Of a DNA stretch of 64,000 bases, positions 3,001-61,611 are shown in pieces. A program made the translations under genes and the position numbers. Location of the stretch: positions 64,001-128,000 of the forward strand of contig CBDDDG010000002.1 in the NCBI GenBank assembly GCA_965226555.1, in the 5' to 3' direction. Positions within the stretch are counted from its first letter, which is position 1. Each line of letters begins with the position of its first letter. The notes under the pieces were generated by a model. It saw nothing but the letters and a program-made list of their open reading frames with translations. It was not told the origin of the DNA and ran no database searches. The DNA is from Salinispira sp. GTDB lineage: Bacteria; Spirochaetota; Spirochaetia; DSM-27196; Salinispiraceae.

Positions 3001-3123
3001 ACTGAAAATTTTGCTCCGCAAAATTTTCAAATGAGGATTCTCTCATCTATACTCTTGATTCTCTCACGGTATAGAAAGTTTTGCCTTGGAAAATTGTGCA
3101 AGCACAATTTCCAGTAGCAAAAC
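3001..3123. repeat. Composite palindromic insert 1 (hairpin + spacer + nested hairpin)
   Basis: gaaaattttgc-tcc-gcaaaattttc ... gaaagttttgccttggaaaattgtgc-aa-gcacaatttccagtagcaaaac; near-identical at 6193-6315 and 10513-10635. Confidence 0.85.
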
Positions 3124-3618
3124 TTTTGTATTGAACATAAAAGCTACCAGCACAAACATGCGCTTACTCAAATCGATAACTATCAATATGCCCTCAGAAA
3201 CAGCAATGTGTACAATGAAAATGATGCTATCTATATACTGCTGCTCTACCATGGAAAAAATGAATGGAACCTCCCACTCACATTTTACAGTTCACATGGA
3301 AATGCTGCTTCCGAATCCATGATCGAAGGCACGGTAGATGTCAAGGTGAAAGTGTCGTACATTGTGCGCGATCTGAGGCGAATGACAAAGAAGCAGTTGG
3401 CATGGCGTTCCGATGAAAAACGATATACATCGACTGCATTGTGGTATATAATGCGAGATAATAAAATGGATGCTGAGGGGCTGAAAGAAATTGCGCAGCT
3501 CCTGAACGGTCTGTCTTCACAAGACTTTACTGATCTGGCAGAGAGTGTGCTGGGCTATCTAAAAGATCTGGGACTGTATGAACAGTTTGAGAAAATTAAC
3601 AGGAAACTATATCCTAGA

Positions 3619-3745
3619 CAAAGTTTTGCCACAGGCAAAACTTTCTACAAAATGAGAGAATGCCAAGCGCAACGAGGTCTGCCAAATGTGAAACTTTTGC
3701 TACTGGAAATTGTGCTCTGCACAATTTTCCAATGCAAAAGTTTCA
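3619..3745. repeat. Composite palindromic insert 3 (~127 bp)
   Basis: aaagttttgcc-aca-ggcaaaacttt + ~44-nt spacer + nested hairpin; also at 6926-7052, 11131-11257 and 61048-61174; same architecture as intergenic 52420-52545. Confidence 0.85.
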
Positions 3746-3760
3746 GGAGGAGAAAACAGT

Positions 3761-4084
3761 ATGCGGACATATAATATTACCAACGCCTTCGTCAGGGAAG
3801 GCATTGCGAAGGGCCGGATTGAGGGTCTTGAACAGGGTATGGAGAAAGGTATTCTGAAAGGCCGGGTTGAAGGTCTTGAGCAGGGAATGGAGAAAGGCAT
3901 TCTGAAAGGAATGGAGAGAGGTATTCTGAAAGGCCAACAGGAAGGACTGCGAACAGGTCGTGAAGAAGGCATTCGAGAAACGGCTCGCAGTATGTTTTCC
4001 AAAGGATTTTCAGCCCATGACATTCAGGATGTTACCGGGCTGAGCGATGAGGAAATTCGGACAGTGCGGAACGGATCGCATTAA
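3761..4084 (+). CDS. RpnS-like small C-terminal protein of RpnB1
   Basis: AGGAGG-agaaaacagt-ATG; MRTYNITNAF followed by GxEx repeats, ending VRNGSH. Confidence 0.65.
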   Translation: MRTYNITNAFVREGIAKGRIEGLEQGMEKGILKGRVEGLEQGMEKGILKGMERGILKGQQEGLRTGREEGIRETARSMFSKGFSAHDIQDVTGLSDEEIRTVRNGSH

Positions 4085-4232
4085 TTATCGCCGATCGGCC
4101 TGCTCGCCATGCGTCTGTTGCTGAGACGGGGGCTGGTCGGAGGCTTGCGCATCCTGGGCTGATCGGCGTTGCACGCCTGCTCGCCCAAGCGGCGGGGTTA
4201 GGTCAATATCTCAAAATAATAGAAACTTTTTG
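4085..4232. repeat. GC-rich modular repeat + conserved tail after Rpn genes
   Basis: Modules gcctgctcgccatgcg and gggctggtcggaggc, tail ggtcaatatc.caaaataatagaaacttt; recurs at ~5715-5875, 7392-7600, 10031-10200, 26520-26580 and 54760-54915; GC modules without the tail at 60230-60365. Confidence 0.75.
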
Positions 4233-4613: not shown

Positions 4614-5714
4614 ATGATCGATTTCAAAGAAAAACCCGCCCCCGTTCCCTACGACCAAGGCTACCGCTCCCTGCTGTTCCAACCCGCAATAATGCTCCAA
4701 TTTCTTCAACGCTTTGTCGGAGGCGCATGGACGAAAAAACTCCGCCGTGAGGATATAACCATCGAAAACGGTACCTTTTTCATCGACCATGCGAAAACAC
4801 GAATGGCCGACATTGTCTGCAAAATCAGGACTCGGGATCACACGGGAGATGTTGCTATCTATGTGCTCCTTGAGCATCAGTCCGGCGTGGACAAAGACAT
4901 GCCCCTCCGCATGTCGGAGTACACAAACCTTCTCTATCGGCACATTCACCGCTCTGGCGCAATTCCCGATGACTGCGAGTTGATATTTCTGCCCATTGTG
5001 TTTTATAATGGTACGAGAAAATGGAAGGTGCCCGGGAATGTCAGAAAGCAACGGAAGCGGAAATTCCCGCAGTATCTTGCTCCTTTTCCCTACGATCTTA
5101 TTAGCGAGAGCGATTATTCTGCGGAGCAGCTGCAGCAGCGGGGAAGAATGTTTGCGGCTGTTATGTACCTTGATCTGTACTCGAAAAATCTGCTGAATAC
5201 GGATTGGGACATTCAGATAGTAGAGAAAGCGATAGCAGAAATGCTGAATGAGGAATCGCTGGAGCTGATAGAGGAATTTATCGGCGTGATAGATTCGATG
5301 TTCGGAATTGTTATAGACTTCGATACGTTAATGAATCAATTAGAAAGAACAAAAGAACCGAGAGGTAAGGAGGTAGCGAAAATGTTCAGAATGAATGCGG
5401 AAACATTCAAAGCGCGCATTGCGGAGATGGGTCGGCAGGAAGGACTACAGACAGGATTGCAAACAGGTCGACAGGAAGGTCGTGAAGAAGGATTGCAGGA
5501 AGGACTTCAGACAGGACTTCAGACAGGTCGGCAGGAAGGACTGCGGACAGGTCGGCAGGAAGGACTACAGACAGGTCGCGCGGAGGGGCATATTGAGGAG
5601 CGGAGAAAAAACGCCCGCAGTATGTTTTTGGAAGGGTTGTCGACCGAGGCTGTTCAGAGAATTACCGGGCTGAGCGATGAGGAAATTCTGACAGTGCGGA
5701 ACGGATCGCATTAA
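4614..5714 (+). CDS. Rpn-family recombination-promoting nuclease/putative transposase subfamily A, copy 1 (366 aa)
   Basis: YDQGYRSLL, MADIVCKI, LLEHQS, MPLRMSEY and PIVFYNG motifs; C-terminal 4-aa GRQE/GLQT repeats; internal AGGAGG + ATG at 5382. Confidence 0.9.
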   Translation: MIDFKEKPAPVPYDQGYRSLLFQPAIMLQFLQRFVGGAWTKKLRREDITIENGTFFIDHAKTRMADIVCKIRTRDHTGDVAIYVLLEHQSGVDKDMPLRMSEYTNLLYRHIHRSGAIPDDCELIFLPIVFYNGTRKWKVPGNVRKQRKRKFPQYLAPFPYDLISESDYSAEQLQQRGRMFAAVMYLDLYSKNLLNTDWDIQIVEKAIAEMLNEESLELIEEFIGVIDSMFGIVIDFDTLMNQLERTKEPRGKEVAKMFRMNAETFKARIAEMGRQEGLQTGLQTGRQEGREEGLQEGLQTGLQTGRQEGLRTGRQEGLQTGRAEGHIEERRKNARSMFLEGLSTEAVQRITGLSDEEILTVRNGSH

Positions 5715-5943
5715 TTATCACCGCTCGGCCTGCTCGCCATGCGTCTGTTGCTGAGACGGGGGCTGGTCGGAGGCTTGCGCATCCTGGGCTGGTCGCGCTT
5801 CAGCGCTACTCGCCCGGGCATCCGGCTCGCCATGCGTCTGGATCAGGTCAATATCCCAAAATAATAGAAACTTTCTGCAAAACTTTCCCATTTTGTCATT
5901 CATATCTCGTTTTTCTCTCGTCACAGATATAGGAGGAATATTT

Positions 5944-7391
5944 ATGAAAAAATCATCCCAGAGCACAGGCCATATCCACGACATAGCCTTCAAGATCGCC
6001 TACTACAGAACCCCCCGTATGATTCCCGACCTGCTACGGCTGTTCTGTGAGGATACAACGCTTTCCAAGATGGACATGGACAAAATCCGCATTGAAACCC
6101 CCAGCTACATTGCAGGAAAAAAGAACCTTCTCTGCGATCTCGTTGTCAGCGCCCCCTTCCTGTCAGACCCCGAGCGGAAAGCTCTGTTTATTACTGAAAA
6201 TTTTGCTCCGCAAAATTTTCAAATGAGGATTCTCTCATCTATACTCTTGATTCTCTTACGGTATAGAAAGTTTTGCCTTGGAAAATTGTGCAAGCACAAT
6301 TTCCAGTAGCAAAACTTTTGTATTGAGCACAAAAGCTACCAGCATAAACATGCTCTCACTCAAATCGATGACTATCAGCATGCCCTCAGAAACAGCAATG
6401 TGTACAATGAAAATGATGCTATCTATATACTTCTGTTCTACCACGGAAAAAAGGAATGGAACCTCCCACTCACATTTTACAGTTCTCATGGAAATGCTGC
6501 TTCCGAATCTATGACTGAAGGCACGGTAGATGTCAGGGCGAGAGTGTCGTACATTGTGCGCGATCTGAGGCGAATGACAAAGGATCAGTTGGCATGGCGC
6601 TCCGATCAGCGCTTCAATGGAAAACGATATACATCAACTGCGTTGTGGTATATTATGAGAGATAATAACAAAGTTTTTCCTAAAGGAAAAACTTTCTATA
6701 CCGTGAGAGAATCAAGAGTATAGATGAGAGAATCCTCATTTGAAAATTGTGCAGAGCACAATTTTCAGTGAAATGAACGCTGAGGGGCTGAAAGAGATTG
6801 CGCGGCTCCTGAACGGTTTGTCATCACAAGACTTTACTGATCTGGCAGAGAGTGTGCTAGGTTACCTGAAGGACTTGGGACTGTATGAACAGTTTGAGAA
6901 AATTGACAGGGAACTGTACCCTAGACAAAGTTTTGCCACAGGCAAAACTTTCTACAAAATGAGAGAATGCCAAGCGCAACGAGGTCTGCCAAATGTGAAA
7001 CTTTTGCTACTGGAAATTGTGCTCTGCACAATTTTCCAATGCAAAAGTTTCAGGAGGAGAAAACAGTATGCGGACATATAACATAACCAACGCCTTCGTC
7101 AGGGAAGGCATTGCGAAGGGCCGGATTGAGGGTCTTGAACAGGGTATGGAGAAAGGTATTCTGAAAGGCCGGGTTGAAGGTCTTGAGCAGGGAATGGAGA
7201 AAGGCATTCTGAAAGGAATGGAGAGAGGTATTCTGAAAGGCCAACAGGAAGGACTGCGAACAGGTCGTGAAGAAGGCATTCGAGAAACGGCTCGCAGTAT
7301 GTTTTCCAAAGGATTTTCAGCCCATGACATTCAGGATGTTACCGGGCTGAGCGATGAGGAAATTCGGACAGTGCGGAACGGATCGCATTAA
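5944..7391 (+). pseudogene. Rpn subfamily B, copy 2, with three palindromic inserts; RpnS-like ORF 7068-7391 intact
   Basis: Paralog of 2752-4084; inserts at 6193-6315, 6669-6771 and 6926-7052. Confidence 0.8.
6669..6771. repeat. Composite palindromic insert 2 (103 bp), an inverted relative of insert 1
   Basis: Present in copies B2 and B4 (60785-60887); empty site gataataaaatg in B1 and B3; its spacer is the reverse complement of the insert-1 spacer. Confidence 0.85.
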
Positions 7392-8536
7392 TTATCGCCG
7401 ATCGGCCTGCTCGCCATGCGTCTGTTGCTGAGACGGGGGCTGGTCGGAGGCTTGCGCATCCTGGGCTGGTCGCGCTTCCGCGCTGCTCGCCATGCAGCCG
7501 GGCTGGTCGGAGGCTTGCACCTCCTGGGCTGATCGGCGTTGCACGCCTGCTCGCCCAAGCGGCGGGGTTAGGTCAATATCTCAAAATAATAGAAACTTTC
7601 TGCAAAACTTTCCCATTTTGTCATTCACCGTTCATATGTAACCCGTCTATATGGTATGAGCAAAAAATATATCGACACAGAGCATACCAGCCCCCCATTC
7701 CCGACTCCCTGAAAAAAATTCACACATTTTGCAAAATTCTTTCCACATACATAGTCAAGAATGACTTTTTACCCGTTATAGATGTAGGAGGGGAGAATTC
7801 ACCATGGCATCACATCGCCATGGGAGCTCACCTATTCAATAAGAAACGTTCAGAAAAAACATTCAGGAGGATTGTATGATCGATTTCAAAGAAAAACCCG
7901 CCCCCGTTCCCTACGACCAAGGATACCGCTCCCTGCTGTTCCAACCCGCAATAATGCTCCAATTTCTTCAACGCTTTGTCGGAGGCGCATGGACGAAAAA
8001 CCTGCGAACCGAGGATATAACCATCGAAAACGGTACCTTTTTCATTGACCATGCGAAAACACGAATGGCCGACATCGTCTGCAAAATCAGAAGTCGGGAT
8101 CATACGGGAGATGTTGCTATCTATGTGCTCCTTGAGCATCAGTCTGGAGTGGACAAAGACATGCCTCTCCGCATGTCGGAGTACACGAATCTGCTCTATC
8201 GGAACATTCACCGCTCCGGCGAAATTCCCGATGACTGCGAGTTGGTATTTCTGCCCATTGTGTTCTATAATGGAACTCGAAAATGGAAGGTGCCAGGGAA
8301 TGTCAGGGAGCAACGGAAGCGGGAATTCCCGCAGTATCTTGCTCCTTTTCCTTATGATCTTATTAACGAGAGCGATTATTCTGCGGAGCAGTTGCAGCAG
8401 CGGGGAAGAATGTTTGCGGCTGTTATGTACCTTGATCTGTACTCGAAAAATCTGCTGAATACGGATTGGGACATTCGGAAGGTAGAGAAAGCGATAGCAG
8501 AAATGCTGAATGAGGAATCGCTGGAGCTGATAAAGG

Positions 8537-9647
8537 GCTGGATTCAACATTTGAAGTGCACCACTTCGGGCCCACTGTGAGATAGTTTAAGCATTCTATC
8601 AAAAGCTTCCTGCGGTGTCAAATAGTTCAGAATTTTTCGCGGTCGATTGTTGAGCGACCGCTGAAACTCCAGTATTTTCCCTGCGTCAATCATATTGAAA
8701 TCGCAGGACTTGGGAAATTGTCGGCGTATGAGACCGTTGGTGTTCTCTACCGTTCCCTTTTCCCAACTGTGATACGGCTGGCAAAAATATACCTGCATAC
8801 CAGTCAGCCGCTCAATGTTCTTATGACGAGCGTTCTCGCTTCCGTTGTCGAGAGTGAGTGTCCTCCGCAGGGCGGGGGGCAATGACCCGAGCAGCGAAAT
8901 GGCATGATGAGCAAAGGTAAATGATGTTCTATCCGCAAGCGGAGCAATGAAGGTCATCCGGGTTGCCCGTTCAACAAATACCGCCACAGCGCTGCGCTGA
9001 CCCTTTCCAATTATACAATCGCCTTCCCAATGTCCTTCCTCGACACGGGCGTCAACCTCTTTTGGGCGCTCGCTAATTCCTTTCTTGCCAACGACATCGG
9101 GGTTCTTCTTACAATAAGCTCTCCGGTCGCAGCGTCTCTTCCGTTTCTTTCTCCGGGTCGGCAGCAGAACGCACCACTGACGATTTTTCGGTCGGTAACA
9201 ATACTGGTAAATGGCTTCATGGCTTATCGATTGACCGGTAATATCAATACCAATGCGCCCTGAGATTTGCTCGGGAGACCAGCTGCATTCCAGCTTTTCA
9301 TGAACATAGTTCAGGACAATATCATTTTTCAGATGCGTATACTGACCTTTGTTTTTCCGACGCTCCCGCGCCTTCCGCTGAGCCTGAATCGCCACATACC
9401 GCCCGTGATCATTCCGGTTACGGTTCAATTCGCGGTAAATGGTCGTATGGCAACACCCAATGGCCCGGGCTATCTCCCTGACGGGATATCCTTTTCGCAG
9501 ATAATAGGCAATATCCTCATCACTTATCCGTATCCAACTGATTATACTGTCTGTGCACCACCTTTTTGTCCTCCTCGTAGTGGTTTTTTCTTATACTCAC
9601 TATATCTCAGAGGGCGGGGAGGTGGTGCACTTATGGTTGAATTCACC
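8537..9647 (-). mobile_element. IS30-family insertion sequence (1111 bp), 3-bp TSD AGG
   Basis: Imperfect terminal IRs gctggattcaac..aagtgcaccac and ggtgaattcaac..aagtgcaccac; AGG at 8534-8536 and 9648-9650. Confidence 0.9.
8544..9558 (-). pseudogene. IS30 transposase, probably frameshifted near the N-terminus
   Basis: WSPEQI, GHWEGD, TLDNGSE and PYHSWEKGTVENTNGLIR motifs. The HTH (EIARAIG..HTTIYREL) is in frame with 9428, but GTG 9558 is 1 nt out of frame and meets TGA TGA. Confidence 0.7.
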
Positions 9648-10263
9648 AGGAATTTGTCGGCGTGGTAGATTCGATGTTCGGAATTGTTATAGACTTTGAC
9701 ACGCTAATGAACCAATTACAAAGAACAAAAGAACCGAGAGGTAAGGAGGTAGCGAAAATGTTCAGAATGAATGCGGAAACATTCAGAGCGCGCATTGCGG
9801 AAATGGGTCGGCAGGAAGGATTGCAGACAGGTCGGCAGGAAGGACTGCAGACAGGACTGCGAACAGGTCGGCAGGAAGGACTACAGGCAGGTCGCGCGGA
9901 GGGGCATATTGAGGAGCGGAGAAAAAACGCCCGCAGTATGTTTTTGGAAGGGTTGTCGACCGAGGCTGTTCAGAGAATTACCGGGCTGAGCGATGAGGAA
10001 ATTCTGACAGTGCGGAACGGATCGCATTAATTATCACCGCTCGGCCTGCTCGCCATGCGTCTGTTGCTGAGACGGGGGCTGGTCGGAGGCGTGCGCCTCC
10101 TGGGCTGGTCGCGCTTCAGCGCTACTCGCCCGGGCATCCGGCTCGCCATGCGGCGGGCTGATCAAACAGTAATATCCCAAAATAATAGAAACTTTTTCAA
10201 AAACTTTCTCATTTTATCATTTATATCTCGTTTTTCTCTCGTCACAGATGTAGGAGGAAGAAT

Positions 10264-11563
10264 ATGAAAAAATCATCCCACAGCACAGGCCACATCCACG
10301 ACATAGCCTTCAAGATCGCCTACTACAGAACCCCCCGTATGATTCCCGATCTGCTGCGGCTGTTCTGTGAGGATACAACACTTGCCAAGCTGGACCTGGG
10401 CAAAATCCGCATTGAAACCCCCAGCTACATTGCAGGAAAAAAGAACCTTCACTGCGATCTCGTTGTCAGCGCCCCCTTCCTGTCAGATCCCGAGCGGAAA
10501 GCTCTATTTATTACTGAAAATTTTGCTCCGCAAAATTTTCAAATGAGGATTCTCTCATCTATACTCTTGATTCTCTCACGGTATAGAAAGTTTTGCCTTG
10601 GAAAATTGTGCAAGCACAATTTCCAGTAGCAAAACTTTTGTATTGAACACAAAAGCTACCTGAATAAACATGCTCTCACACAGATTGATGACTATCAGCA
10701 TGCCCTCAGAAACAGCAATGTGTACAATGAAAATGATGCTATCTATATACTGCTGCTCTACCATGGAAAAAATGAATGGAACCTCCCACTCACATTTTAC
10801 AGTTCACATGGAAATGCTGCTTCCGAATCCCTTACCGAAGGCACAGTGGATGTCAGGGTAAAAGTGTCGTACATTGTGCGCGATCTGGGGCGAATGACAA
10901 AGAATCAATTGGCATGGCGTTTCGATGGAAAACGATATACATCGACTGCGTTGTGGTATATAATGCGAGATAATAAAATGGATGCTGAGGGGCTGAAAGA
11001 AATTGCGCAGCTCCTGAACGGTCTGTCTTCACAAGACTTTACTGATCTGGCAGAGAGTGTGCTGGGCTATCTAAAAGATCTGGGACTGTATGAACAGTTT
11101 GAGAAAATTAACAGGAAACTATATCCTAGACAAAGTTTTGCCACAGGCAAAACTTTCTACAAAATGGGAGAATGCCAAGCGCAACGATGCATGCCAAATT
11201 TGAAACTTTTGCTACTGGAAATTGTGCTCTGCACAATTTTCCAATGCAAAAGTTTCAGGAGGAGAAAACAGTATGCGGACATATAATATTACCAACGCCT
11301 TCGTCAGGGAAGGCATTGCGAAGGGCCGGATTGAGGGTCTTGAACAGGGTATGGAGAAAGGTATTCTGAAAGGAATGGAAAAGGGCATTCTGAAAGGCCG
11401 GGTTGAAGGTCTTGAGCAAGGACAAGCTGAGAACCAGCGTGAGATTGCACTCAGAATGCTCAGGAAGGGTCTGTCGATAGACCTTATTCATGAGTACACC
11501 GAGCTCAGCGGGGATGAAATTCGAGCATTTCAGAAAAACGCCCAAGAAAACGGTAAAAAATAG
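10264..11563 (+). pseudogene. Rpn subfamily B, copy 3, with two inserts; RpnS-like ORF 11273-11563 has a divergent tail
   Basis: Paralog of B1; inserts at 10513-10635 and 11131-11257; tail EIALRMLRKGLSIDLIHEYTELS. Confidence 0.8.
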
Positions 11564-11723: not shown

Positions 11724-11796
11724 GGCGCCGTACCCAAGTGGCTAAGGGAGAGGTCTGCAAAACCTTTATTCGCCGGTTCGATTCCGGCCGGCGCCT
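11724..11796 (+). tRNA. tRNA-Cys (GCA), CCA not encoded
   Basis: ggcgccg...cggcgcc acceptor stem, anticodon loop ctGCAaa, T-loop gttcgattc. Confidence 0.93.
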
Positions 11797-12948: not shown

Positions 12949-13002
12949 GAAACTTTTGCTACTGAAATTTTGCAGAGCGCAATTTCCATGAGCAAAACTT
13001 TC
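12949..13002. repeat. Nested palindrome (~54 bp) between the divergent NUDIX and ravA genes
   Basis: gaaacttttgct-actgaaattttgc-aga-gcgcaatttccatg-agcaaaactttc. Confidence 0.75.
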
Positions 13003-14600: not shown

Positions 14601-14603
14601 GCG

Positions 14604-17406: not shown

Positions 17407-17421
17407 ACAATCCTCCTGAAC

Positions 17422-17475
17422 GAAAGTTTTGCTACTGGAAATTGTGCTTGCACAATTTTCCAATGCAAAAGTTTC
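17422..17475. repeat. Nested palindrome just upstream of the RpnA3 RBS
   Basis: gaaagttttgctactggaaattgtgc-tt-gcacaattttccaatgcaaaagtttc; same element at 26119-26172. Confidence 0.85.
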
Positions 17476-27936: not shown

Positions 27937-28009
27937 TCAGTAACCGCAGAAATAATGGCGGACGCCGTCAGATTTTTTCTGAGGAAAAATTACCTTGGAG
28001 GTAACATAT

Positions 28010-50121: not shown

Positions 50122-50143
50122 GGATTTCATGCTATAACTATAA

Positions 50144-50197
50144 CAAAGTTTTGCATTGGAAAATTGTGCTTGCACAATTTCCAGTAGCAAAAGTTTC
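50144..50197. repeat. Nested palindrome upstream of mgtC
   Basis: caaagttttgcattggaaaattgtgc-tt-gcacaatttccagtagcaaaagtttc. Confidence 0.85.
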
Positions 50198-50215
50198 TAT
50201 AAGGGGACTTGGTGT

Positions 50216-50899
50216 ATGGAGATTTTGACAATTATATTACGCATGATGCTGGCGGTCGGGCTTGGCGGGCTGGTGGGTATTGAGCGGGAAAATAAGAGTC
50301 GGCCTGCCGGGTTCAGGACACATATACTTGTTTGTGTTGGATCTGCTCTGGTTATGATTACCTCCGAATATCTGTTTGAGCGCTATGGGGCAGTGACAAA
50401 CATCGATCCGGCTCGGCTCGGCGCGCAGGTAATTAGCGGAATTGGATTTCTCGGGGCAGGGACAATTATCCGCTATAATGCCAATGTGGTGGGGCTGACA
50501 ACGGCGGCCAGTCTATGGGCTGTTGCCTGTGTCGGAATTGCCGTTGGAATCGGCTATTATGAAGCTGCCATTGCCGGGGCGCTTACCATTTTCCTGTCGC
50601 TGATTTTCCTACGAAAATTCGGTCGGGTGCTCACGAAGAACAAGGTTTCGAACATGTCCATTACCATTACTATGGAGAACAAAACGGGCAATATCAGCAG
50701 CATAACTTCAATTCTGGAAAAACAATATATTCGGATAAAGGATATTCGCTTCCACGATTCCGATTCATCTGAAGATGCTGAGTATCTGAAAATTAAATTT
50801 AAGCTCAAACTACCGCCGGGCATGGATGCTGATACTGCAATTAAGATAGCCGGGGGTATTAATGGCGTATTTTCGGTGGAAGAAGGAAAGAGTTTCTAA
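50216..50899 (+). CDS. MgtC/SapB family protein
   Basis: GIERE...PAGFRTH, DPARLGAQVISGIGFLGAG, GLTTAASLW. Confidence 0.93.
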   Translation: MEILTIILRMMLAVGLGGLVGIERENKSRPAGFRTHILVCVGSALVMITSEYLFERYGAVTNIDPARLGAQVISGIGFLGAGTIIRYNANVVGLTTAASLWAVACVGIAVGIGYYEAAIAGALTIFLSLIFLRKFGRVLTKNKVSNMSITITMENKTGNISSITSILEKQYIRIKDIRFHDSDSSEDAEYLKIKFKLKLPPGMDADTAIKIAGGINGVFSVEEGKSF

Positions 50900-50943
50900 C
50901 TGAAACTTTTGCATCAATGTAGCTATTCGCCAACCTGCCTGTC

Positions 50944-51558
50944 TTATCGGCGCTCCCAGAGAATCCGCAGAGCCTCGGCAAGGCTCATGTCGCGCGCGCT
51001 GAAAAGTACCATAACGTGATACAGCAGATCTGCCGTTTCGGAGGCGAGCTCCGCGTTCGTCCGCGAGAGAATGAGTTCAACGGCTTCTTCTCCGGTTTTT
51101 TTACGTATGTGGTCTTCACCCGTATTAAATAAATGGGTTGTGTATGATCCTTTGGGGCGCGTTTCCCTGCGTTCTCTGATGATCGTTTCCAGATCGCCGA
51201 GAAGCTTGCCTGCGTTTTCCAGAGTTGCAGGTAGTTCCCCTGAGGGAGTATTTTTCAGTACTGAATCTGGTGAATGCGGAGGATCATTCTTTGCGGTTCT
51301 GGAGTCTGCGGAATTGGGTGTTTCAAAACCATCGGCAATAATTTCGACATGCTCGTCTTTTCGGGCGATGTTTCTGAAGCCCCGTATTCTTGAATCCGGT
51401 AGGAGCTTTCCGCTTGCGCCGTTAATGAGCCATGCCGCGTGTTGTTCAATACTCTTCCGGTAGCCCTTGTCGTTAATGAGTCCGGCTCCGATTAGCCGCT
51501 TGTCTCCTGTAAAAATAAGGGCAGGAACAACAGTGCCGTCTTTAGTCTCAGTCCGCAT
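50944..51558 (-). CDS. hisE: Phosphoribosyl-ATP diphosphatase with a degenerate HisI-like N-region
   Basis: SYTTHLF..G...I.KKTGEEAVE, ETADLLYH; GGAGG RBS before ATG 51558. Confidence 0.8.
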   Translation of the reverse strand: MRTETKDGTVVPALIFTGDKRLIGAGLINDKGYRKSIEQHAAWLINGASGKLLPDSRIRGFRNIARKDEHVEIIADGFETPNSADSRTAKNDPPHSPDSVLKNTPSGELPATLENAGKLLGDLETIIRERRETRPKGSYTTHLFNTGEDHIRKKTGEEAVELILSRTNAELASETADLLYHVMVLFSARDMSLAEALRILWERR

Positions 51559-52360
51559 TTGTTTCCTCCGCCCGTCTTTCAGAATATCTGCCGGATATTG
51601 TATCAAAAAACCTGACAGCTTCTTTCAAATTGATAGTGCCCTCATAGAGAGCCTTACCGATAATAACACCTTCGATGTATGTATGTTCACTGTCCTTTAT
51701 GGCCCGGGCTATTGTGCGGCAGTCGTCCATGGTGCCCATGCCGCCGGATATGATGACCGGTAAGCCTGCTGCGCGTGCGATGCTGAGGGATCCTGCGATG
51801 TCCGGCCCGCTGAGGGTTCCGTCCCTGCTGATGTTGGTGTAGATAATGCCCTGCAGTCCGAGGGAGGCAACACGCGCGGCGAGCTCTTCGGCGCGGATGC
51901 CTGCTGTCTGTTCCCAGCCGGCAATGTTCACGATGGAATTGCGGGCGTCGATGCCGGCGATGAACTGCGTTTTCCACCGCTGAGTCCACTGCGCGACTTC
52001 TTCGGCATGGGTAACCAGCGCGCTCCCGATAATGAGCCGTCCAACGCCCAGCTCGCTGAGTTCCCGTACATCGTCTTCACTGCGGATGCCTCCGCCGACT
52101 TCAAGAGTCATGCCGCTGCGCTCGCATATGCGCCCAATTATGCGCCGGTTTCTGCGTGTTTCGGAAAAGTTGCCGCCGCGGGCAGCATCAAGATCGACCA
52201 CATGAAGATATCGGGCTCCGCTTTCTTCAAAATCCTCAGCAATTTTGAGAGGATCCTGTGAATATGATGTTACATTGTTATAGGAGCCCTGATACAGGCG
52301 CACCGCTTCACCGCCGAGCAGGTCGATGGCAGGAATCACATTCATCGGTTTTGTATGCAT
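51548..52360 (-). CDS. hisA: ProFAR isomerase
   Basis: IPAIDL.GG.AVRL.QG, LHVVDLDAA, EVGGGIR, I.RDGTL.GPD, GKALYEG. Confidence 0.93.
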   Translation of the reverse strand: MHTKPMNVIPAIDLLGGEAVRLYQGSYNNVTSYSQDPLKIAEDFEESGARYLHVVDLDAARGGNFSETRRNRRIIGRICERSGMTLEVGGGIRSEDDVRELSELGVGRLIIGSALVTHAEEVAQWTQRWKTQFIAGIDARNSIVNIAGWEQTAGIRAEELAARVASLGLQGIIYTNISRDGTLSGPDIAGSLSIARAAGLPVIISGGMGTMDDCRTIARAIKDSEHTYIEGVIIGKALYEGTINLKEAVRFFDTISGRYSERRAEETNAD

Positions 52361-52419
52361 ATACTTTCCTTCAGTGTTAAGTTATATTTTTTATTACACA
52401 AACTCCATATAATATAGTA

Positions 52420-52545
52420 GAAACTTTTGCATTGGAAAATTGCGCTTGCGCAATTTCCAGTAGCAAAAGTTTCCGATCTGGAATGCTTTCTTTGTGCTTA
52501 GCATTCTCCTATTTTATAGAAAGTTTTGCATTTTGCAAAACTTTC
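52420..52545. repeat. Full intergenic composite palindromic element (~126 bp)
   Basis: Nested hairpin + spacer + short hairpin; same architecture as Rpn insert 3, in reverse orientation. Confidence 0.85.
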
Positions 52546-52554
52546 TAGTATATT
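52526..52554 (+). promoter_or_regulatory. Putative sigma70 promoter for yccA, formed by the element end
   Basis: TTGCAT-17 nt-TATATT. Confidence 0.6.
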
Positions 52555-52634
52555 AATAGAGGTTGCTCTCAAAAAATCAATAAGAAACTATTTTGAGAGG
52601 AGTAGCCGTATACCTTCGAATCAGGAGTATTTTT

Positions 52635-53339
52635 ATGAGTAACAATCTCAGTCAGTCATATAGTCAAAGCCAGGTTCTTACCCGGAGCCTTATGCGGAAT
52701 GTATATTTATGGATGACAATCGGGCTTTCAATAACCGGCATTGTCGCATGGGGAACATCGCAGAGCCCGACATTGTTGGCATCTCTGAGCGGGAGCGGCG
52801 CCTTCATTGTGCTGTTCATAGCGCAAATTGGGCTGGTCTTTTTTCTCAGCGCACGGATAATGAAAATGTCGCCAATGACGGCTACGCTGTGTTTTGCCGC
52901 CTACGCAATTCTCAACGGATTGACCATGTCATACATTTTTCTTGCCTACACGAGTCAGTCCATTGCATCAACATTCTTCATTACCGCCGGTATGTTCGGA
53001 ATAATGAGTGTGTTTGCCTTTACGACCAAAACCGATCTTTCGAGCTGGCGGAATTATCTGTTCATGGGGCTCATCGGCATTGTTATTGCATCGCTGGTCA
53101 ACATGTTTCTCCGCAGCGATGGTCTCAGTTACATTATCAGCTATGCGGGGGTCGTTCTGTTTCTGGGACTTACTGCCTACGATACCCAGAAAATAAAGCA
53201 GATGAGCGATGAAATGAGCGGCACGGCGAGCGAACCCGATTATGTGCGCCTGAGTATTATCGGCGCGCTCAAGCTGTACCTCGACTTCATCAATTTGTTT
53301 CTCTTTCTTTTGAGGATATTAGGCGGACGGCGCTCGTAG
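52635..53339 (+). CDS. Bax inhibitor-1/YccA family membrane protein
   Basis: MRNVYLWM..GL, TKTDLS, LTAYDTQKIK, GALKLYLDFINLFL. Confidence 0.93.
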   Translation: MSNNLSQSYSQSQVLTRSLMRNVYLWMTIGLSITGIVAWGTSQSPTLLASLSGSGAFIVLFIAQIGLVFFLSARIMKMSPMTATLCFAAYAILNGLTMSYIFLAYTSQSIASTFFITAGMFGIMSVFAFTTKTDLSSWRNYLFMGLIGIVIASLVNMFLRSDGLSYIISYAGVVLFLGLTAYDTQKIKQMSDEMSGTASEPDYVRLSIIGALKLYLDFINLFLFLLRILGGRRS

Positions 53340-53398: not shown

Positions 53399-54523
53399 TT
53401 AATGCGATCCGTTCCGCACTGTCCGCATTTCCTCATCGCTCAGCCCGGTAATTCTCTGAACAGCCTCGGTCGACAACCCTTCCAAAAACATACTGCGGGC
53501 GTTTTTTCTCCGCTCCTCAATATGCCCCTCCGCGCGACCTGTCTGTAGTCCTTCCTGCCGACCTGTTTGCAATCCTGTCTGTAGGCCTTCCTGCCGACCT
53601 TCTTCACGGCCTTCCTGCCGACCTGTTTGCAATCCTTCCTGCCGACCTGTCTGAAGTCCTGTCTGCAATCCTTCTTCACGACCTGTCCGCAGTCCTTCCT
53701 GCCGACCCATTTCCGCAATGTGCGCTCTGAATGTTTCCGCATTCATTCTGAACATTTTCGCTACCTCCTTACCTCTCGGTTCTTTTGTTCTTTCTAACTG
53801 GTTCATTAACGTGTCAAAGTCTATAACAATTCCGAACATTGAATCTACCACGCCGACAAATTCCTCTATCAGCTCCAGCGATTCTTCATTCAGCATTTCT
53901 GCTATCGCGTTCTCCACCTTCCGAATGTCCCAATCCGTATTCAGCAGATTTTTCGAGTACAGATCAAGGTACATAACAGCCGCAAACATTCTTCCCCGCT
54001 GCTGCAACTGCTCCGCAGAATAATCGTTCTCACTTATCAGATCGTAGGGAAAGGGGGCAAGATACTGCGGGAATTCCCGCTTCCGTTGCTCTCTGACATT
54101 CCCGGGCACCTTCCATTTTCTCGTACCATTATAGAATACAATGGGCAGAAATACCAACTCGCAGTCATCGGGAATTGCGCCGGAGCGGTGAATGTTCCGA
54201 TAGAGCAGATTCGTATATTCCGACATGCGGAGGGGCATGTCTTTGTCCACTCCGGACTGATGCTCAAGGAGCACATAGATAGCAACATCTCCCGTGTGAT
54301 CCCGACTCCTGATTTTGCAGACAATGTCGGCCATCCGTGTTTTTGCATGGTCAATGAAAAAGGTACCGTTTTCAATGGTTATGTCCTCGGTTCGCAATTT
54401 TTTCGTCCATGCGCCTCCGACAAAGCGTTGAAGAAATTGGAGCATTATTGCGGGTTGGAACAGCAGGGAGCGGTAGCCTTGGTCGTAGGGAACGGGGGCG
54501 GGTTTTTCTTTGAAATCGATCAT
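53399..54523 (-). CDS. Rpn subfamily A, copy 6 (374 aa)
   Basis: Paralog; leader lacks the palindrome. Confidence 0.9.
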   Translation of the reverse strand: MIDFKEKPAPVPYDQGYRSLLFQPAIMLQFLQRFVGGAWTKKLRTEDITIENGTFFIDHAKTRMADIVCKIRSRDHTGDVAIYVLLEHQSGVDKDMPLRMSEYTNLLYRNIHRSGAIPDDCELVFLPIVFYNGTRKWKVPGNVREQRKREFPQYLAPFPYDLISENDYSAEQLQQRGRMFAAVMYLDLYSKNLLNTDWDIRKVENAIAEMLNEESLELIEEFVGVVDSMFGIVIDFDTLMNQLERTKEPRGKEVAKMFRMNAETFRAHIAEMGRQEGLRTGREEGLQTGLQTGRQEGLQTGRQEGREEGRQEGLQTGLQTGRQEGLQTGRAEGHIEERRKNARSMFLEGLSTEAVQRITGLSDEEMRTVRNGSH

Positions 54524-54976
54524 ATAATCCTCCTGAACGTTTCTTTCTGAATAGGGGAGCTCCCATGGCGACATGGTCCCATGGTGAATTCTCCCCTCTA
54601 TATATGTGACGGGTAAAAAGTCATTTTTGATTGTGTTTTTTGAAAGAATTTTGCAAAATTTGTGAATTTTTTTCAGGGAGTCGGGAATGGGGGGCTGGTA
54701 TGCTCTGTATCGATACGATCTATGCTCCCGGGAACAATGCTCAGCGCGAGGTTTTTGTAAAAAGTTTCTATTATTTTGAGATATTGACCTAACCCCGCCG
54801 CTTGGGCGAGCCGGATGCTTGGGCGAGCAGGCGTGCAACGCCGATCAACCCAGGAGGTGCAAGCCTCCGACCAGCCCGGCTGCATGGCGAGCAGCGCGGA
54901 AGCGCGACCAGCCCCCGCGCCTGCCTGAGTTGAATTGCCGCTTCTCAATAGTTACTGCGGGCTATGGGTTATGAAA

Positions 54977-56517
54977 CTAATACCATGACGGAAAATTTGG
55001 TTGCACCCCATCAGTCATGGTATCCGTATCCACAGCAGCCAGGCCGGAACCCGTAAACATACCGTTTTTGGTTCCAGTGTATTTGCCATTGTCATTGAGC
55101 TTGTTGCCAGTTTCGGGCGTCCAATGTGCTTTCCACTCCTCAAGATCACCGGTAAATGCGCGTGCAAAATAGAACATAGAGCCCATAGTCGTTACCGAAC
55201 TGACATCCCAACCGGAAATGTTGCCATTGAATGCGTTTGCGTTAGAGAACATAAAGCGCATATCCGTTACCGCGCTGACATTCCAACCCGAGATATTGCC
55301 ATTGAATGCGCTTGCGCTATTGAACATATTGGACATATTCGTTACCGTGCTGACATCCCAACTGGAAATGTCGCCATTGAATGCAGTTTTATCCTTGAAC
55401 ATCTCGGACATGTCCGTTACTGCCGTGGTAACAATGTAGTTGAGATTGGCAGTATTGCCCCAAGTATCTATCCCTTCAGTTACCGCTGTTTTCAGTTCAT
55501 CATTATCTTGAGGACTCAGGGTAACAGAGAACTTTTCGGTGGCAAACAGTTCGATTCCTCCGTCTGCGCCCGATACCTCATATGTTCCGGGGCTTGTATG
55601 TGCGGTAACCATAATAATTCCGGTAGTTTCATCAACTGTCGGGAGGGCGACATCTGCGGGTGTCGTTGGGGTGGTGACCGCAGCCAAAGTAACGGTTGGA
55701 TTATTCGCATTGATAATTGCGTCATCAATATCATCCGAAAGAATGACGGATACTGCCGTACCCGCGGGAACCTCTGTCGCAACAGTCGGCAGTATTGCTG
55801 TTGCGGGTTCAGACCATGAACCACCGTAAATGCCGTTGACCGCACGCACCTGCACATCGTAGCTGGCGCCGTTTGTCAGCCCCATAATGGTATCGGTGGT
55901 GGTATCGGCATCAGTTGTCCGCTGAGTAACAGCGGGAGCATCCGTCCAGAGATCAGAGGTCAGCTTATACTCCAGTTCATATCCGGTAATGTCGCTGCCT
56001 TCATTGTATGGAGCTGTCCATTTCACCGTCAGACGACCATTACCGAGTATAACCAGTATTGCAGGAGCGGCAGCAGTTATGACCAGTTCACCTGTTGCGG
56101 ATTCAGACCAGGGGCCATTGCCAATGTCATTGACAGCACGTACCTGTACGCGGTAACTGATTTTTTTGTGTGTTAGTGGGGTTATGGTGTAGCTGGTGTG
56201 TGTTCCGATGTCGGAGATAATTTCCGTCCATGTGGTTCCGCCGTCTGAGCTATGGCGCAGATGATAGGCGGTAATTTCGCCATCGCCGCTTTTTTCCGGC
56301 GGAATCCAGCTAACCGTTAGTTGATCATTCCCCGCTACAAGGGTTGGAGCAGCCATGGTGCCCGGCGTCATTGGTTCCGGTTCCGTCATTGGATCGGGTT
56401 TTGGCGTTGGATCGGGGTCCATGTCCATCACTGGACATCCGGCAAGCAGCGCAATGAACATTGCGCATAATAGGAAGAGGGTTACCCCCCCTTTTTTTTC
56501 AATAACGTAGTTCGCAT
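54977..56517 (-). CDS. FN3 + BspA/DUF285 lipoprotein copy 4, frameshifted at an A8G7 tract in the signal peptide
   Basis: GAGGT + ATG 56517 reads MRTTLLKKKGG-stop; +1 nt (or a -1 ribosomal shift) joins ...VTLFLLCAMFIALLAGC. Confidence 0.85.
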
Positions 56518-56704
56518 AATTTTATACCTCTTTTTTATGCTATAATAGAAAGTTTTGCATTTTGCAAAATTTTTTAATAGTTTTCATCGGCATTTCCGAC
56601 TGTTCCTGCGCCTATCGGTACAATATATCAGTTCGAAAAGCCGTATTATAAGTTATATCACATTGGGAAAGCACAATCAAGAAAAAAAGCAGTCCACGGA
56701 TTTT

Positions 56705-56819
56705 CCCGGACGCATGGCGAGCAGGCGTGCAACGCCGACCAGCCCGGACGCATGGCGAGCAGGCGTGCAACGCCGACCAGCCCGGACGCATGGGCGAGCA
56801 GGCGCGCAGCGCCGACCAG
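56705..56819. repeat. 38-bp GC-rich tandem repeat x3
   Basis: cccggacgcatggcgagcaggcgtgcaacgccgaccag at 56705, 56743 and 56781. Confidence 0.9.
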
Positions 56820-56884
56820 CCCCCCGCGCCTGCCTGAGTTGAATTGCCGCTTCTCAATAGTTACTGCGGGCTATAAAACTGCTC

Positions 56885-57338: not shown

Positions 57339-60173
57339 ATGCATATTACATTACCTAAAGGGAACACCTTTTTCGTATTCTGCGCAATTTTTATTATATT
57401 GATTGCTGGATGTCCAACACCGGTAGATATTGCAACCCCGCCGGGTACCATGGTTGCTCCAACCCTCACAGCAGGGAACGGGCAATTAACGGTTGCATGG
57501 ACTGAGCCAACTGATGGCGGCAGCGCCATTACCGCGTATCACCTTCGCCATAGCGCGGACGGCGGTACCAACTGGTCGGACATTATTAATGTCGCCGCTT
57601 CAGCCACAAGCAGCATCATCCCTGAACTGAGCAACGGTACCCCGTACAGTGTACAGGTTCGTGCCGTAAACGCGCGGGGAGAAGGCAAATGGTCGGAATC
57701 GAGCGCAGAAGCAGTTCCTGTTGCTGTTCCCATGGCGCCGACTGGTCTCGCTCTCACAGTGGGAAATGGAAAACTTACCGCAACATGGGCGGAATTAGAG
57801 CCGACCGACACTGGCGGCAGCCCTATCCTTCATTATGCAGTGGAACACCGCGAACCAGAAGCCGAGTGGCCGCAAACTCCCAGTGCATCCACCGCCGATG
57901 CCGGCACCCTGACCCTCGACATCCCCAACCTGAAAAACGGCACCGAGTACGAAGTACGGGTATACGCTGTCAATGATCAGGGAGATGGAAACCGATCAGA
58001 AATTGCAGCGGCAACCCCTGCCACCGTTCCTGATAAGCCGAACGCTCCAACCCTCACAGCGAGAAATGAGCAACTTACCGCAACATGGACTGCGCCGGAC
58101 AATGGCGGAAACGCTATTATTCGGTATGAAGTGCAGTATCGCACCTCCAGCCCGCAAGGACAGTGGACGACTTCTTCGTCTGCCGATTCTGATGTTACTG
58201 ATACAAGCCACACCGTCACAGGACTAACAAACGGTACCACGTACGAAGTACAGGTGCGCGCCGTGAATTCGGTGGCTGAGGATGCGGGAAATGGCCCGGG
58301 AGTTGGCGCATGGTCAACATCATCTGCCTCCGCAACCCCTGTTGACGTTCCCAAGGCGCCGACTGGTCTCGCTCTCACAGTGGGAAATGGGAAGCTTACT
58401 GCATCATGGACTGCGCCGACCGACACTGGCGGCAGCGACATTACCGGGTATGCAGTGCAATATCGCACAGGCGGCGGAGCATGGTCTGCGCCAATTAGCG
58501 CTGGTACAAGCACAAACCACGAAATCCCCAACCTGAAAAACGGCACCGAGTACGAAGTACGGGTATACGCTGTCAATGATCAGGGAGATGGAAACCGATC
58601 AGAAATTGCCGCGGCAACCCCTGCCACCGTTCCTGCTAAGCCGAACGCTCCAACCCTCACAGTAGGAGATAGGCAACTTACCGCAACATGGACTGCGCCG
58701 GACAATGGCGGAAACGCTATTATTCGGTATGAAGTGCAGTATCGCACCTCCAGCCCGCAAGGACAGTGGACGACTTCTTCGTCTGCCGATTCTGATGTTA
58801 CTGATACAAGCCACACCGTCACAGGACTAACAAACGGTACCACGTACGAAGTACAGGTGCGCGCCGTGAATTCAGTGGCTGAGGATGCGGGAGTTGGCGC
58901 ATGGTCAACATCTGCGACAGAAACCCCCGATGTTGCTCCCACTGCGCCGACCGCTCTCACGCTTGACGTAGGGAATAAGCGGCTTGTCGTTAACTGGGCT
59001 GCGCCGAGCGACAACGGAGGTACGCCCATTATCAGGTATGAACTGGAATATAAGCTGATCTCTGGCAGCTGGGATACTTCTAACGATGTTACTCAGCCTG
59101 TAATTGTCGCTGGTACCACCACACATACCATTGATATGCTGACGAACGGCAACACCTACAATGTACGGGTTCGTGCCGTCAACGGAGTCAATAATGTGAT
59201 CAACGAGGGCGTCTGGTTAACGTCAACAGCAATGCTGCCGGCTTCGGTTGTTGATGCGAAAGCGGGAAGTTCTCGGGATGAGGCAGACGTTTCCCAGGGT
59301 ACGGCAGCGTCCGTTATCCTTTCGGCTAATATTGATGTCCTTATTGCCGATGCTGTGAATCCAACCATTACCTTAACTCCGGTAACCACCCCAATCCCAT
59401 ATGTGCCACCTACGCCCGGCGTGCCCAACTCGGGCTCGACGAATAATGTAACGCAAGATGCCACCCTGCCGACGGTTAATGCGCGTACCGGACTTATTAC
59501 GGTTACCGCAAGTACAACGGCAGGAACCTATACAGTATCTGGTGAAGACGGAAGCGGAGCCGAGGTGTTTCCCACCAAGTATTTCTATGTTATCGTGAGT
59601 CCCTCAACTAAAGCTGCCCTTGACACAGCGGTACGTACGGGAATAGAAATCTGGGGCAATGCTGCCGATCTCAACTACATTATTACCACGGGAGTAACGG
59701 ATATTCATTCGATTTTCAATCGCGGAACCAAAACAACGGGGGGTGGAGTTGCCACAACGGCATTCAATGGCGATATCTCCAAATGGGATACTACATCGGT
59801 TACGAATATGTCCTATTTGTTCAAGGCCGCAATCGCATTCAATGGCGATATCTCGGGCTGGGATGTCAGTTCGGTAGAGAATATGGACAGTATGTTCAAT
59901 GGTGCAAACGCATTCAATGGCGATATCTCTGGGTGGGATGTCAGTTCGGTTGCGAATATGAGCAATATGTTCAATTCTGCACTCTCATTTAAGGGTAATC
60001 TTAACGACTGGGCCTATAATAACTCGGTTGACCCTGCAGTTACATGGAAGACTACTGATGGTGGTGGTAAATGGGATAATGGCACATATACCGGAACCAA
60101 AACAGGTATGTTTACGTTTACTGGTACTAGTACCGCCGTACCGGGAACCTTTACGATTCCGACATGGTATTAG
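57339..60173 (+). CDS. FN3 (six) + BspA/DUF285 lipoprotein copy 5 (intact)
   Basis: AAGGAG RBS, LIAGC lipobox, FN3 array with internal duplication, DUF285 repeats. Confidence 0.9.
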   Translation: MHITLPKGNTFFVFCAIFIILIAGCPTPVDIATPPGTMVAPTLTAGNGQLTVAWTEPTDGGSAITAYHLRHSADGGTNWSDIINVAASATSSIIPELSNGTPYSVQVRAVNARGEGKWSESSAEAVPVAVPMAPTGLALTVGNGKLTATWAELEPTDTGGSPILHYAVEHREPEAEWPQTPSASTADAGTLTLDIPNLKNGTEYEVRVYAVNDQGDGNRSEIAAATPATVPDKPNAPTLTARNEQLTATWTAPDNGGNAIIRYEVQYRTSSPQGQWTTSSSADSDVTDTSHTVTGLTNGTTYEVQVRAVNSVAEDAGNGPGVGAWSTSSASATPVDVPKAPTGLALTVGNGKLTASWTAPTDTGGSDITGYAVQYRTGGGAWSAPISAGTSTNHEIPNLKNGTEYEVRVYAVNDQGDGNRSEIAAATPATVPAKPNAPTLTVGDRQLTATWTAPDNGGNAIIRYEVQYRTSSPQGQWTTSSSADSDVTDTSHTVTGLTNGTTYEVQVRAVNSVAEDAGVGAWSTSATETPDVAPTAPTALTLDVGNKRLVVNWAAPSDNGGTPIIRYELEYKLISGSWDTSNDVTQPVIVAGTTTHTIDMLTNGNTYNVRVRAVNGVNNVINEGVWLTSTAMLPASVVDAKAGSSRDEADVSQGTAASVILSANIDVLIADAVNPTITLTPVTTPIPYVPPTPGVPNSGSTNNVTQDATLPTVNARTGLITVTASTTAGTYTVSGEDGSGAEVFPTKYFYVIVSPSTKAALDTAVRTGIEIWGNAADLNYIITTGVTDIHSIFNRGTKTTGGGVATTAFNGDISKWDTTSVTNMSYLFKAAIAFNGDISGWDVSSVENMDSMFNGANAFNGDISGWDVSSVANMSNMFNSALSFKGNLNDWAYNNSVDPAVTWKTTDGGGKWDNGTYTGTKTGMFTFTGTSTAVPGTFTIPTWY

Positions 60174-60569
60174 TAGTTTCATAACCTAACCCGCAGGGCC
60201 ATCAAAGCCCTGCGATTTTTAGCTCCGGCGGGCGGGCTGGTCGGAGGCTTGTGCCTCCTGGGCTGGTCGGCGTTGCACGCCTGCTCGCCCGGGCATCCGG
60301 TTCGCCCATGCGTCTGTTGCTGAGACGGTGAGCTGATACGGTGTTGCTCGCCCATGCGTCTGGAACAGATTAAATTAAACAGGAGTTGCAGCGCGACCCG
60401 CGTTGTAGCTCCTGTCTGCATAAACTCTCGCGCCAGATCCTGAACTGCCTGTTCATCATGCTCGGATGTTTCCGGGAACATACCCTTCTAAAAAAATAAT
60501 TACAAAATTTCTCATTGTATCATTCACCATTCATATTTGACCTGTCTATATGGTATGGGGAAAAATTAT

Positions 60570-61441
60570 ATGAAAAAATCATCCCACAGCAAAGGCCATA
60601 TCCACGACATAGCCTTCAAGATCGCCTACTACAGAACCCCCCGTATGATTCTCGACCTGCTACGGCTGTTCTGTGAGGATACAACGCTTGCCAAGCTGGA
60701 TCTGGACAAAAAGCAGTTGATATGGCGTTCCGATGAAAAACGATATACATCAACTGCGTTGTGGTATATAATGCGAGACAATAACAAAGTTTTTCCTAAA
60801 GGAAAAACTTTCTATACCGTGAGAGAATCAAGAGTATAGATGAGAGAATCCTCATTTGAAAATTGTGCAGAGCACAATTTTCAGTGAAATGGATGCTGAG
60901 GGGCTGAAAGAGATTGCGCAGCTCCTGAACGGTTTGTCTTCACAAGACTTTACTGATCTAGCAGAGAGTGTGCTAGGATATATCAAAGATATAGATCCAA
61001 AACTGTATGAACAGTTTGAGAAAATTGACAGGGAACTGTTCCCTAGACAAAGTTTTGCCACAGGCAAAACTTTCTACAAAATGAGAGAATGCCAAGCGCA
61101 ACGAGGCATGCCAAATGTGAAACTTTTGCTACTGGAAATTGTGCTCTGCACAATTTTCCAATGCAAAAGTTTCAGTAGGAGAAAACAGTATGCGGACATA
61201 TAATATTACCAACGCCTTCGTCAGGGAAGGGATTGCGAAGGGCCGGATTGAGGGTCTTGAGCAGGGAATGGAGAAAGGAATGGAGAAAGGAATGGAGAAA
61301 GGAATGGAGAAAGGAATGGAGAGAGGCATTCGAGAAACGGCTCGCAGTATGTTTTCCAAAGGATTTTCAGCCCATGACATTCAGGATGTTACCGGGCTGA
61401 GCGATGAGGAAATGCGGACAGTGCGGAACGGATCGCATTAA
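60570..61441 (+). pseudogene. Rpn subfamily B, copy 4: internal deletion + inserts 2 and 3; RpnS-like ORF 61190-61441 intact
   Basis: LDLDK joined directly to KQLIWRSD (catalytic core deleted); GMEK repeats. Confidence 0.8.
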
Positions 61442-61582
61442 TTGGCGCCGAACGGCCTATTCGCCAACTGTGGCAGGTAATTGATGTTCTCAGGTATGCG
61501 CCGTACACGCCACGGTCAGCATAAGGATATTGAAGCACGGTTAAAATCTGGAGTATAGTAGCGGAATACTATTACCAAAGTT

Positions 61583-61611
61583 TTGCAAAATGCAAAAGTT
61601 TCTATTACTAT
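61583..61611 (+). promoter_or_regulatory. Putative sigma70 promoter for leuS within a short palindrome
   Basis: TTGCAA-17 nt-TACTAT; palindrome aaagttttgcaaaatgcaaaagttt. Confidence 0.6.

Follow-up and report, generated by a model that had tools for sequence, protein, structure and literature searches.

Several described repeat families share features with the palindromic family reported here. The PATEs of Haloquadratum walsbyi, such as HqIRS46, have two terminal palindromes in direct repeat, lose their core by repeat-mediated deletion to give a 52-bp terminal-only form, and have an IS605-type TnpA as partner (PMC3119063). In the REPINs of Pseudomonas fluorescens SBW25, a palindrome doublet around a spacer is the mobile unit, which occurs in hundreds of copies and leaves singlets as remnants (PMC3116915, PMC3337134), and these elements go with RAYT genes (PMC3116915). 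Rickettsia palindromic elements are palindromic repeats of about 100-150 bp inside genes (PMC10969869). By definition, a MITE has a resident IS whose ends are identical or very similar to its own (PMC2575886). MITE464/MITEPgRS of Porphyromonas gingivalis carries the ends of the resident ISPg1 around a variable, repeat-built interior; it is several hundred base pairs long with tandem inner repeats and occurs in about 20 copies, and the accessible part of its description mentions neither doubled-end hairpins nor a collapse to 27 bp (PMC2575886).

The stretch of DNA analyzed here (64,000 nucleotides, hereafter the window) belongs to genome G000 (2.98 Mb in 26 contigs, 93.5% complete, with three FlaA proteins, as fits a spirochaete). 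Its repeat family has the REPIN layout of two palindromes around a spacer, mostly outside genes, without a RAYT gene flanked by the repeat, and the terminal palindromes and repeat-mediated core deletion of PATEs. Like MITE464, it has a variable interior and ends matching those of a resident IS, here nearly so, and like the Rickettsia elements it reaches 100-150 bp and occurs inside genes. The copies are 25-168 bp long, numerous and without a transposase, as in MITEs. The features that can be checked for an IS5-type MITE, of which MITE464 with ISPg1 is an example, are all present: terminal inverted repeats, a fixed 5-bp target duplication that is eroded in older copies, and a resident IS with similar ends. 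Overall, the element is mobile DNA of an ordinary kind that is built in an unusual way. We consider it quite probable that the family is a MITE with a 5-bp duplication and doubled hairpin ends, the 98-168-bp forms of which are likely moved by the DDE transposase of a resident IS5 element, while the 27-, 40- and 54-bp forms are likely products of collapse in place. The established parts of this reading are the 5-bp duplication, the match of ends and targets to IS5, the hairpin-spacer-hairpin unit, and the length and loop variants at one site. The mostly non-subscription literature searched (e.g., PMC10969869, PMC11602168), the supplements of which may contain comparable elements, showed no MITE in which the terminal repeats at both ends are doubled into hairpins, and the end motifs matched only primers in literature text.

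The basic unit of 98-99 bp consists of a hairpin P, a 45-nt spacer and a second hairpin P. In each P, an inverted copy of the terminal repeat follows the repeat itself, which gives a doubled, hairpin-forming end; the arms of the terminal inverted repeats measure 11-12 bp in the consensus from both ends of 373 sites. A second hairpin, Q, in one P loop (P[Q]) extends the element to 126 bp, and Q in both loops extends it to 153 bp. The left hairpin carries a G-type and the right hairpin a C-type arm pair, so that the outer arms are unlike in 19/19 of the 126-bp copies with good duplications. Two spacer subfamilies, A (young) and B (older), were distinguished. That they are unrelated captures was rejected on their ungapped global identity (23/45, p 0.0005), though local alignment was not significant; judged by their sequences, A and B are likely diverged kin. 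A 168-bp subfamily consists of A plus one 42-bp unit of a second, GC-rich repeat, which occurs in tandem units of about 40-42 bp at 56690-56830 in the window and also downstream of Rpn genes, e.g., at 4090-4200. Q is the right-hand hairpin of spacer-B elements, and several whole B elements sit within a P loop. Q may have begun as the right-hand hairpin of an older spacer-B element lodged in a P loop, and a deletion between two CATTG copies would turn such an arrangement into P[Q]. Three hairpins form in the predicted fold of the copy at 52420-52545 (z = -8.7).

Of the 18 units in the window, ten measure 98-126 bp, five 53-54 bp and two 27 bp, and one has 40 bp. A preliminary description of the window had put their number at about 20, which is here lowered to 18; the units P and Q, their nesting and both orientations were verified, as were all of its coordinates. 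The units, a neighboring IS5 remnant and the Rpn/YhgA-like loci are as follows.

3004-3127, minus strand: 124-bp element of the older spacer-B subfamily with a Q-type outer end, interrupting an Rpn gene (site 1)
3619-3744, plus strand: 126-bp element with the build P-spacer-P[Q] at site 3 of an Rpn gene; an internal AGGAGG and ATG follow directly
6196-6319, minus strand: 124-bp element, site 1 of the second Rpn paralogue
6669-6766, plus strand: 98-bp element P-spacer B-Q, site 2
6926-7051, plus strand: 126-bp element, site 3
10516-10639, minus strand: 124-bp element, site 1 of the third Rpn paralogue
11131-11256, plus strand: 126-bp element, site 3
12949-13002, no strand: 54-bp P[Q] form, duplication 2/5
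17422-17475, no strand: 54-bp P[Q] flanked by a perfect 5-bp duplication and situated just 5' of an Rpn ribosome-binding site; its paralogous sites either lack an insert or carry 126- and 153-bp forms
20360-20578, minus strand: 3' remnant (81% identity) of an isoform of the proposed IS5 mobilizer, with its right terminal repeat
20601-20653, no strand: 53-bp degenerate P[Q] form adjoining the IS5 remnant
20670-20709, no strand: 40-bp truncated form, left arm plus Q
26119-26172, no strand: 54-bp P[Q] with a perfect 5-bp duplication, at a paralogous site shared with 17422
50144-50197, no strand: 54-bp form with a perfect 5-bp duplication and both outer-type arms
52420-52545, minus strand: 126-bp copy from the subfamily with spacer A, the youngest; perfect 5-bp duplication
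56548-56574, no strand: 27-bp solo hairpin, perfect 5-bp duplication overlapping a TATAAT; one paralogue is empty
60785-60882, plus strand: 98-bp element, site 2 of the fourth Rpn paralogue
61048-61173, plus strand: 126-bp element, site 3
61576-61602, no strand: 27-bp solo hairpin, duplication 1/5
2746-4084, 4614-5714, 5893-7391, 7876-10030, 16318-17508, 24906-27871, 53399-54838 and 60537-61441: Rpn/YhgA-like loci

A pattern search of the whole genome found 495 element clusters covering 35,379 bases, or 1.2% of the DNA, a count that includes some loose clusters as well as degenerate remnants of 18-20 bp; de-duplication left 373 to 395 distinct sites, depending on the rule applied. The cluster pattern matched 15 times in the window and not at all in each of 10 block shuffles, and contig C10 contained 108 clusters compared with none in one shuffle. 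The family is real, abundant and recently active. The genome-wide count suggested in the preliminary description shows that copies are not confined to the window, and its proposal of a recently active, non-autonomous family with a mobilizer gene outside the window is supported; filled and empty sites among paralogues exist, as it had reported. The Q pattern was found in 0/30 related genomes outside G000. The P hairpin, present 185 times in G000, had one or two matches each in 5/400 other genomes of the phylum, compared with 3/400 for the reversed control. No metagenome contig matched the element-plus-spacer pattern, the plasmid search returned no homologue of the element, and an Rfam search of the window at the gathering score matched only tRNA (the window has a tRNA gene at 11724-11796). 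Among the contigs of runs X3-X6, which come from related strains, one of run X5 spans 52340-52533 with 210 letters compared with 194 here and is neither identical nor an empty site. In genus g27 (4/9 genomes, L138-L142), an exact 25-bp P hairpin forms part of a conserved multi-hairpin block upstream of two genes, at a frequency near the control level; at the first gene, which from its sequence we take to be HtpG-like, the block stands directly before a TATAAT.

Filled and empty paralogous sites differed by the hairpin span plus 6-7 bases, which corresponds to one more element base per end and a 5-bp duplication. At the 373 de-duplicated sites, this duplication was perfect in 66 and matched at 4/5 in 49, compared with 0 and 5 at a control offset. 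The best overlap at 30 distinct filled/empty sites was 5 bp in 23, 4 in 4, 3 in 2 and 6 in 1. Among 73 distinct full-length sites, perfect duplications flanked 22/29 of the youngest copies, defined by a spacer within 3 changes of the commonest one, and 8/44 of the others (Fisher p 2e-6), and all 5 displayed sites of the 168-bp subfamily had perfect duplications. In the window, 5/18 units (17422, 26119, 50144, 52420 and 56548) had a perfect duplication, while the Rpn inserts as read showed 3/5 or 0/5, their net insert still being the element plus 4-5 bp. The earlier observation of no evident duplication consequently applies to these particular Rpn inserts, which lack a clean one, but not to the family.

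The duplication was perfect in 0/19 Q-ended and in 30/54 P-ended copies, and a G was present at the second base outside the arm in all 19 Q-ended copies. At the 23 filled/empty sites of 5-bp geometry, the two element-adjacent bases differed from the target in 26-52% and the outer positions in 0-13%. In older copies, among them the Rpn inserts, the central base is all that is retained of the duplication, which runs against a simple IS5-MITE account. The AG cases would be accounted for by an in-register deletion that extends beyond the Q arm, and donor bases may have been carried over. The 43 imperfect copies gave no support to the idea that the altered bases in one flank complement those of the other (p 0.55-0.79 at three registers).

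The preliminary description had regarded the family as REPIN- or PATE-like and as a substrate of HUH transposases (IS200/IS605 TnpA, RAYT); on this reading, a Y1 enzyme that recognizes the hairpins would move it in single-stranded form. The two hairpins around a spacer, their strong folding and the duplication of at most 1 bp in older copies are consistent with such a mode, as is the position of the element mostly outside genes: 100/114 sites with good duplications lie outside and 14/114 inside ORF calls (ORFs of at least 150 aa, covering 86% of the genome). However, neither Y1 TnpA (PF01797) nor RAYT (NF047646) had a match in the 93.5% complete genome, while controls matched in 6/14 genomes, and a search for a RAYT or TnpA(Y1) gene flanked by P/Q hairpins, as had been proposed, found none in G000. 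The HUH reading also conflicts with the true terminal inverted repeats and with the duplications of 5 bp that are perfect, since PATEs cause no target duplication (PMC3119063). In addition, the sites favor divergent over convergent gaps (30 to 10, compared with 257 to 212), and the ends match those of a resident IS5 DDE element. We therefore regard movement by an HUH enzyme as extremely unlikely; for the young subfamily it is largely refuted. Hairpin-ended repeats without an obvious duplication thus need not be HUH substrates and are read here as decay products of an IS5 MITE. PF04986 had no match in G000, nor did its control, and IS110 (PF02371) was likewise without a match in G000.

The proposed mobilizer is a resident 1340-bp IS5-family element with a 338-aa transposase (NF033581 at 228.7 bits, cut-off 140), which has an intact frame in 7/10 copies and a perfect 5-bp duplication in 7/10. 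Its left end, GAAACCTTTGCA, equals the P end of the repeat family, GAAACTTTTGCA, in 11/12 bases. T...A targets were found at 20/30 perfect sites of the repeat family, 6/7 of the 1340-bp IS5 and 0/5 of a second IS5, compared with 6.4% of the genome (p 0.65 and 0.009). Only two IS5-family elements duplicate 5 bp among the multi-copy IS of G000; the others, with duplications of about 4, 4, 6-7, 9 and 15 bp (read by eye), do not fit as partners in duplication length and ends. The second IS5 was rejected because the T...A target bias is absent. A 126-bp copy lies inside this second IS5, which occurs with the insert at three sites (C26:9486-9612, C10:540011-540137 and C10:480605-480728). Two other multi-copy elements were noted: L087 (G000:C1:42430-43892; 1.46-1.63 kb) has CAG...CTG ends, 9-bp duplications and a 428-aa frame without an NCBIfam match, and L089 (G000:C18:16969-18220) is IS481-like, below the NCBIfam cut-off, with about 17 full copies and about 15-bp duplications.

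The nearest named relative of the resident IS5 is ISAba23 (locus L106), with 46% protein identity, the same left end GAAACCTTTGCA and a 5-bp duplication. The repeat family resembles this NF033581-type IS5 in its left end and duplication length. In contrast to ISAba23 and the resident IS5, it carries no transposase, each of its ends is doubled into a hairpin, and its interior is not similar to either IS, the spacer having no significant match in the IS5 interiors. The IS5 protein was found in 0/98 relatives at E 1e-30. Against IS5 as partner it can be said that the end match spans only 11-12 bp, that many copies start with C, not G, at one end and yet have perfect duplications, and that another mobilizer could be missing from a 93.5% complete genome. 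The end and target matches nevertheless suggest that the IS5 transposase would act in trans on the outer arms and likely moves the 98-168-bp forms.

Perfect sites overlapped a TATAAT-like hexamer in 25/66 cases, compared with 5.7% of non-coding positions, and within T...A sites the overlap was 21/40 compared with 17.7%; part of this enrichment is the target bias itself. The family, whose roughly 400 sites are enriched on such hexamers and in the gaps between divergent genes, could affect expression. A promoter scan of 49900-52800 was discarded as evidence (8 sites compared with 4.6 +/- 2.3 in shuffles, two of them being a 9-of-12 match inside the element).

Arms were matched in 370/415 Q hairpins of 12 listed classes. 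The arm co-variation reported earlier is therefore real. The conclusion drawn from it, that the hairpin is conserved, does not follow, because at fixed sites loops also occur inverted to the reverse complement, an outcome predicted by template switching and not required by selection for a stem. Among 30 multi-copy sites, the length varied by at least 20 bp in 6 and reverse-complement loops occurred in 4; 18 copies with an identical spacer had the loops AA, TT, TCT, AC and also AAAAT or ATTTT. One paralogous site holds 54-, 126- and 153-bp versions as well as 15 empty copies. These length versions and flipped loops suggest that the short forms and the arm co-variation likely stem from in-place deletion and template switching rather than from selection for an HUH substrate. 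Deletion between directly repeated arms would make the short forms and leave the duplication intact, and polymerase template switching would match the arms and flip the loops; arm matching by template switching (PMC5941160) and arm matching with spacer inversion (PMC8604942) have been described. The two outer arm types are joined in 24/39 typeable 27- and 54-bp forms with a duplication of 4-5 of 5, and such unlike outer arms would not be expected of a separately moved module. If so, one genome shows a transposon turning into REP-like solo palindromes, and arm co-variation through template switching can mimic selection on structure.

Against pure collapse, the arms are matched in 15/39 typeable short forms, as a separately moved module would have them (16 more were untypeable), and one exact deletion from a present full-length copy yields only 3/28 of the 54-bp forms, in a test that is weak partly through misparsed parents. 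Furthermore, one 54-bp sequence is identical at two unrelated sites, both with perfect duplications. The same IS5 partner might be able to use every head-to-head arm pair, in which case 54-bp and perhaps 27-bp modules would transpose themselves, and older Q-ended copies would have been cut at inner arms carrying two donor bases. Perfect duplications at 35/172 sites of the 23-26 and 47-57 core-length classes, the identical 54-bp copies at unrelated sites and the G at the second outer base of all Q-ended copies are consistent with this, and the mobility of the 52-bp terminal-only PATE has been raised (PMC3119063). We nevertheless consider self-moving modules quite unlikely, since the two outer arms are combined in the majority of typeable short forms, fixed sites show collapse, and internal deletion is also expected to keep the duplication. 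In addition, a 27-bp duplex is too short for bringing both ends together in DDE synapsis.

The genome shows an extreme Rpn/YhgA-like expansion, with 140 PF04754 matches in 2.98 Mb and a 233-ORF cluster; a high Rpn count is exemplified by 26 copies elsewhere (PMC10400941). Hairpin arms were present in 18 of 46 Rpn loci of the window type, and the three inserts occur as a mosaic in all seven combinations, which points to recombination among Rpn paralogues rather than repeated insertion. The inserts would thus have spread among these paralogues by recombination. They add 103, 129 and 130 bp and cause a frame shift or stop (ORF 2746-3117 ends inside site 1), and from the broken frames they are predicted to disrupt many Rpn defence genes. 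Rickettsia palindromic elements, in contrast, lie in frame in working genes (PMC10969869). The end of site 3 before an internal AGGAGG and ATG corresponds to the layout reported for Rpn small antitoxins (PMC10400941). An IS30-family element (NF033563) at 8537-9648 splits an Rpn gene of the window into 7876-8580 and 9662-10030. The window also encodes five fibronectin-III and DUF285 repeat proteins from a 99-ORF cluster (78-2417, 18045-20270, 27995-29566, 54977-56461 and 57339-60173).

The extent of this expansion and the many copies in or before Rpn genes would fit a role of the Rpn/YhgA-like PD-(D/E)XK proteins themselves as mobilizers, to which we give almost no credence. Those copies represent a small number of sites that were amplified together with the genes around them (129 copies at 30 sites), Rpn proteins are described as highly unlikely transposases (PMC10400941), and ends and targets match IS5. 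Moreover, none of 419 pairs of neighboring hairpins bounded a long duplicated host segment. Movement of host DNA or Rpn cassettes as composites between neighboring hairpins was rejected as well, since outer 5-mers were shared in 5/419 pairs compared with 2.6 expected (p 0.12), four of them belonging to the 168-bp subfamily.

The back-to-back-end pattern was found at 25 metagenome loci. Six of these (five distinct sites, as L118 = L136) hold an unrelated 132-bp MITE with both ends doubled and ends like those of ISAba23. Its duplications match in 5, 2, 5, 3, 5 and 4 of 5 positions, and its interior has no similarity to spacers A or B. L121 is the site of L116 shrunk to a 29-bp solo hairpin, and no longer element was established around the end pattern at the remaining 18 of the 25 loci. 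The 132-bp MITE is an independent replicate of the doubled-end build and its collapse, and the build thus recurs in another lineage. One might suppose that doubling of IS5 ends is a recurring MITE design giving each module two outward ends, that 54- and even 27-bp units are true DDE substrates, and that inner-arm cuts carry two donor bases and leave the central target base duplicated. We regard this as unlikely; if true, the 54- and 27-bp units would be among the shortest known DDE transposase substrates. The 132-bp doubled-end MITE is uncatalogued, and its loci are L113, L116, L118, L121, L127, L135 and L136.
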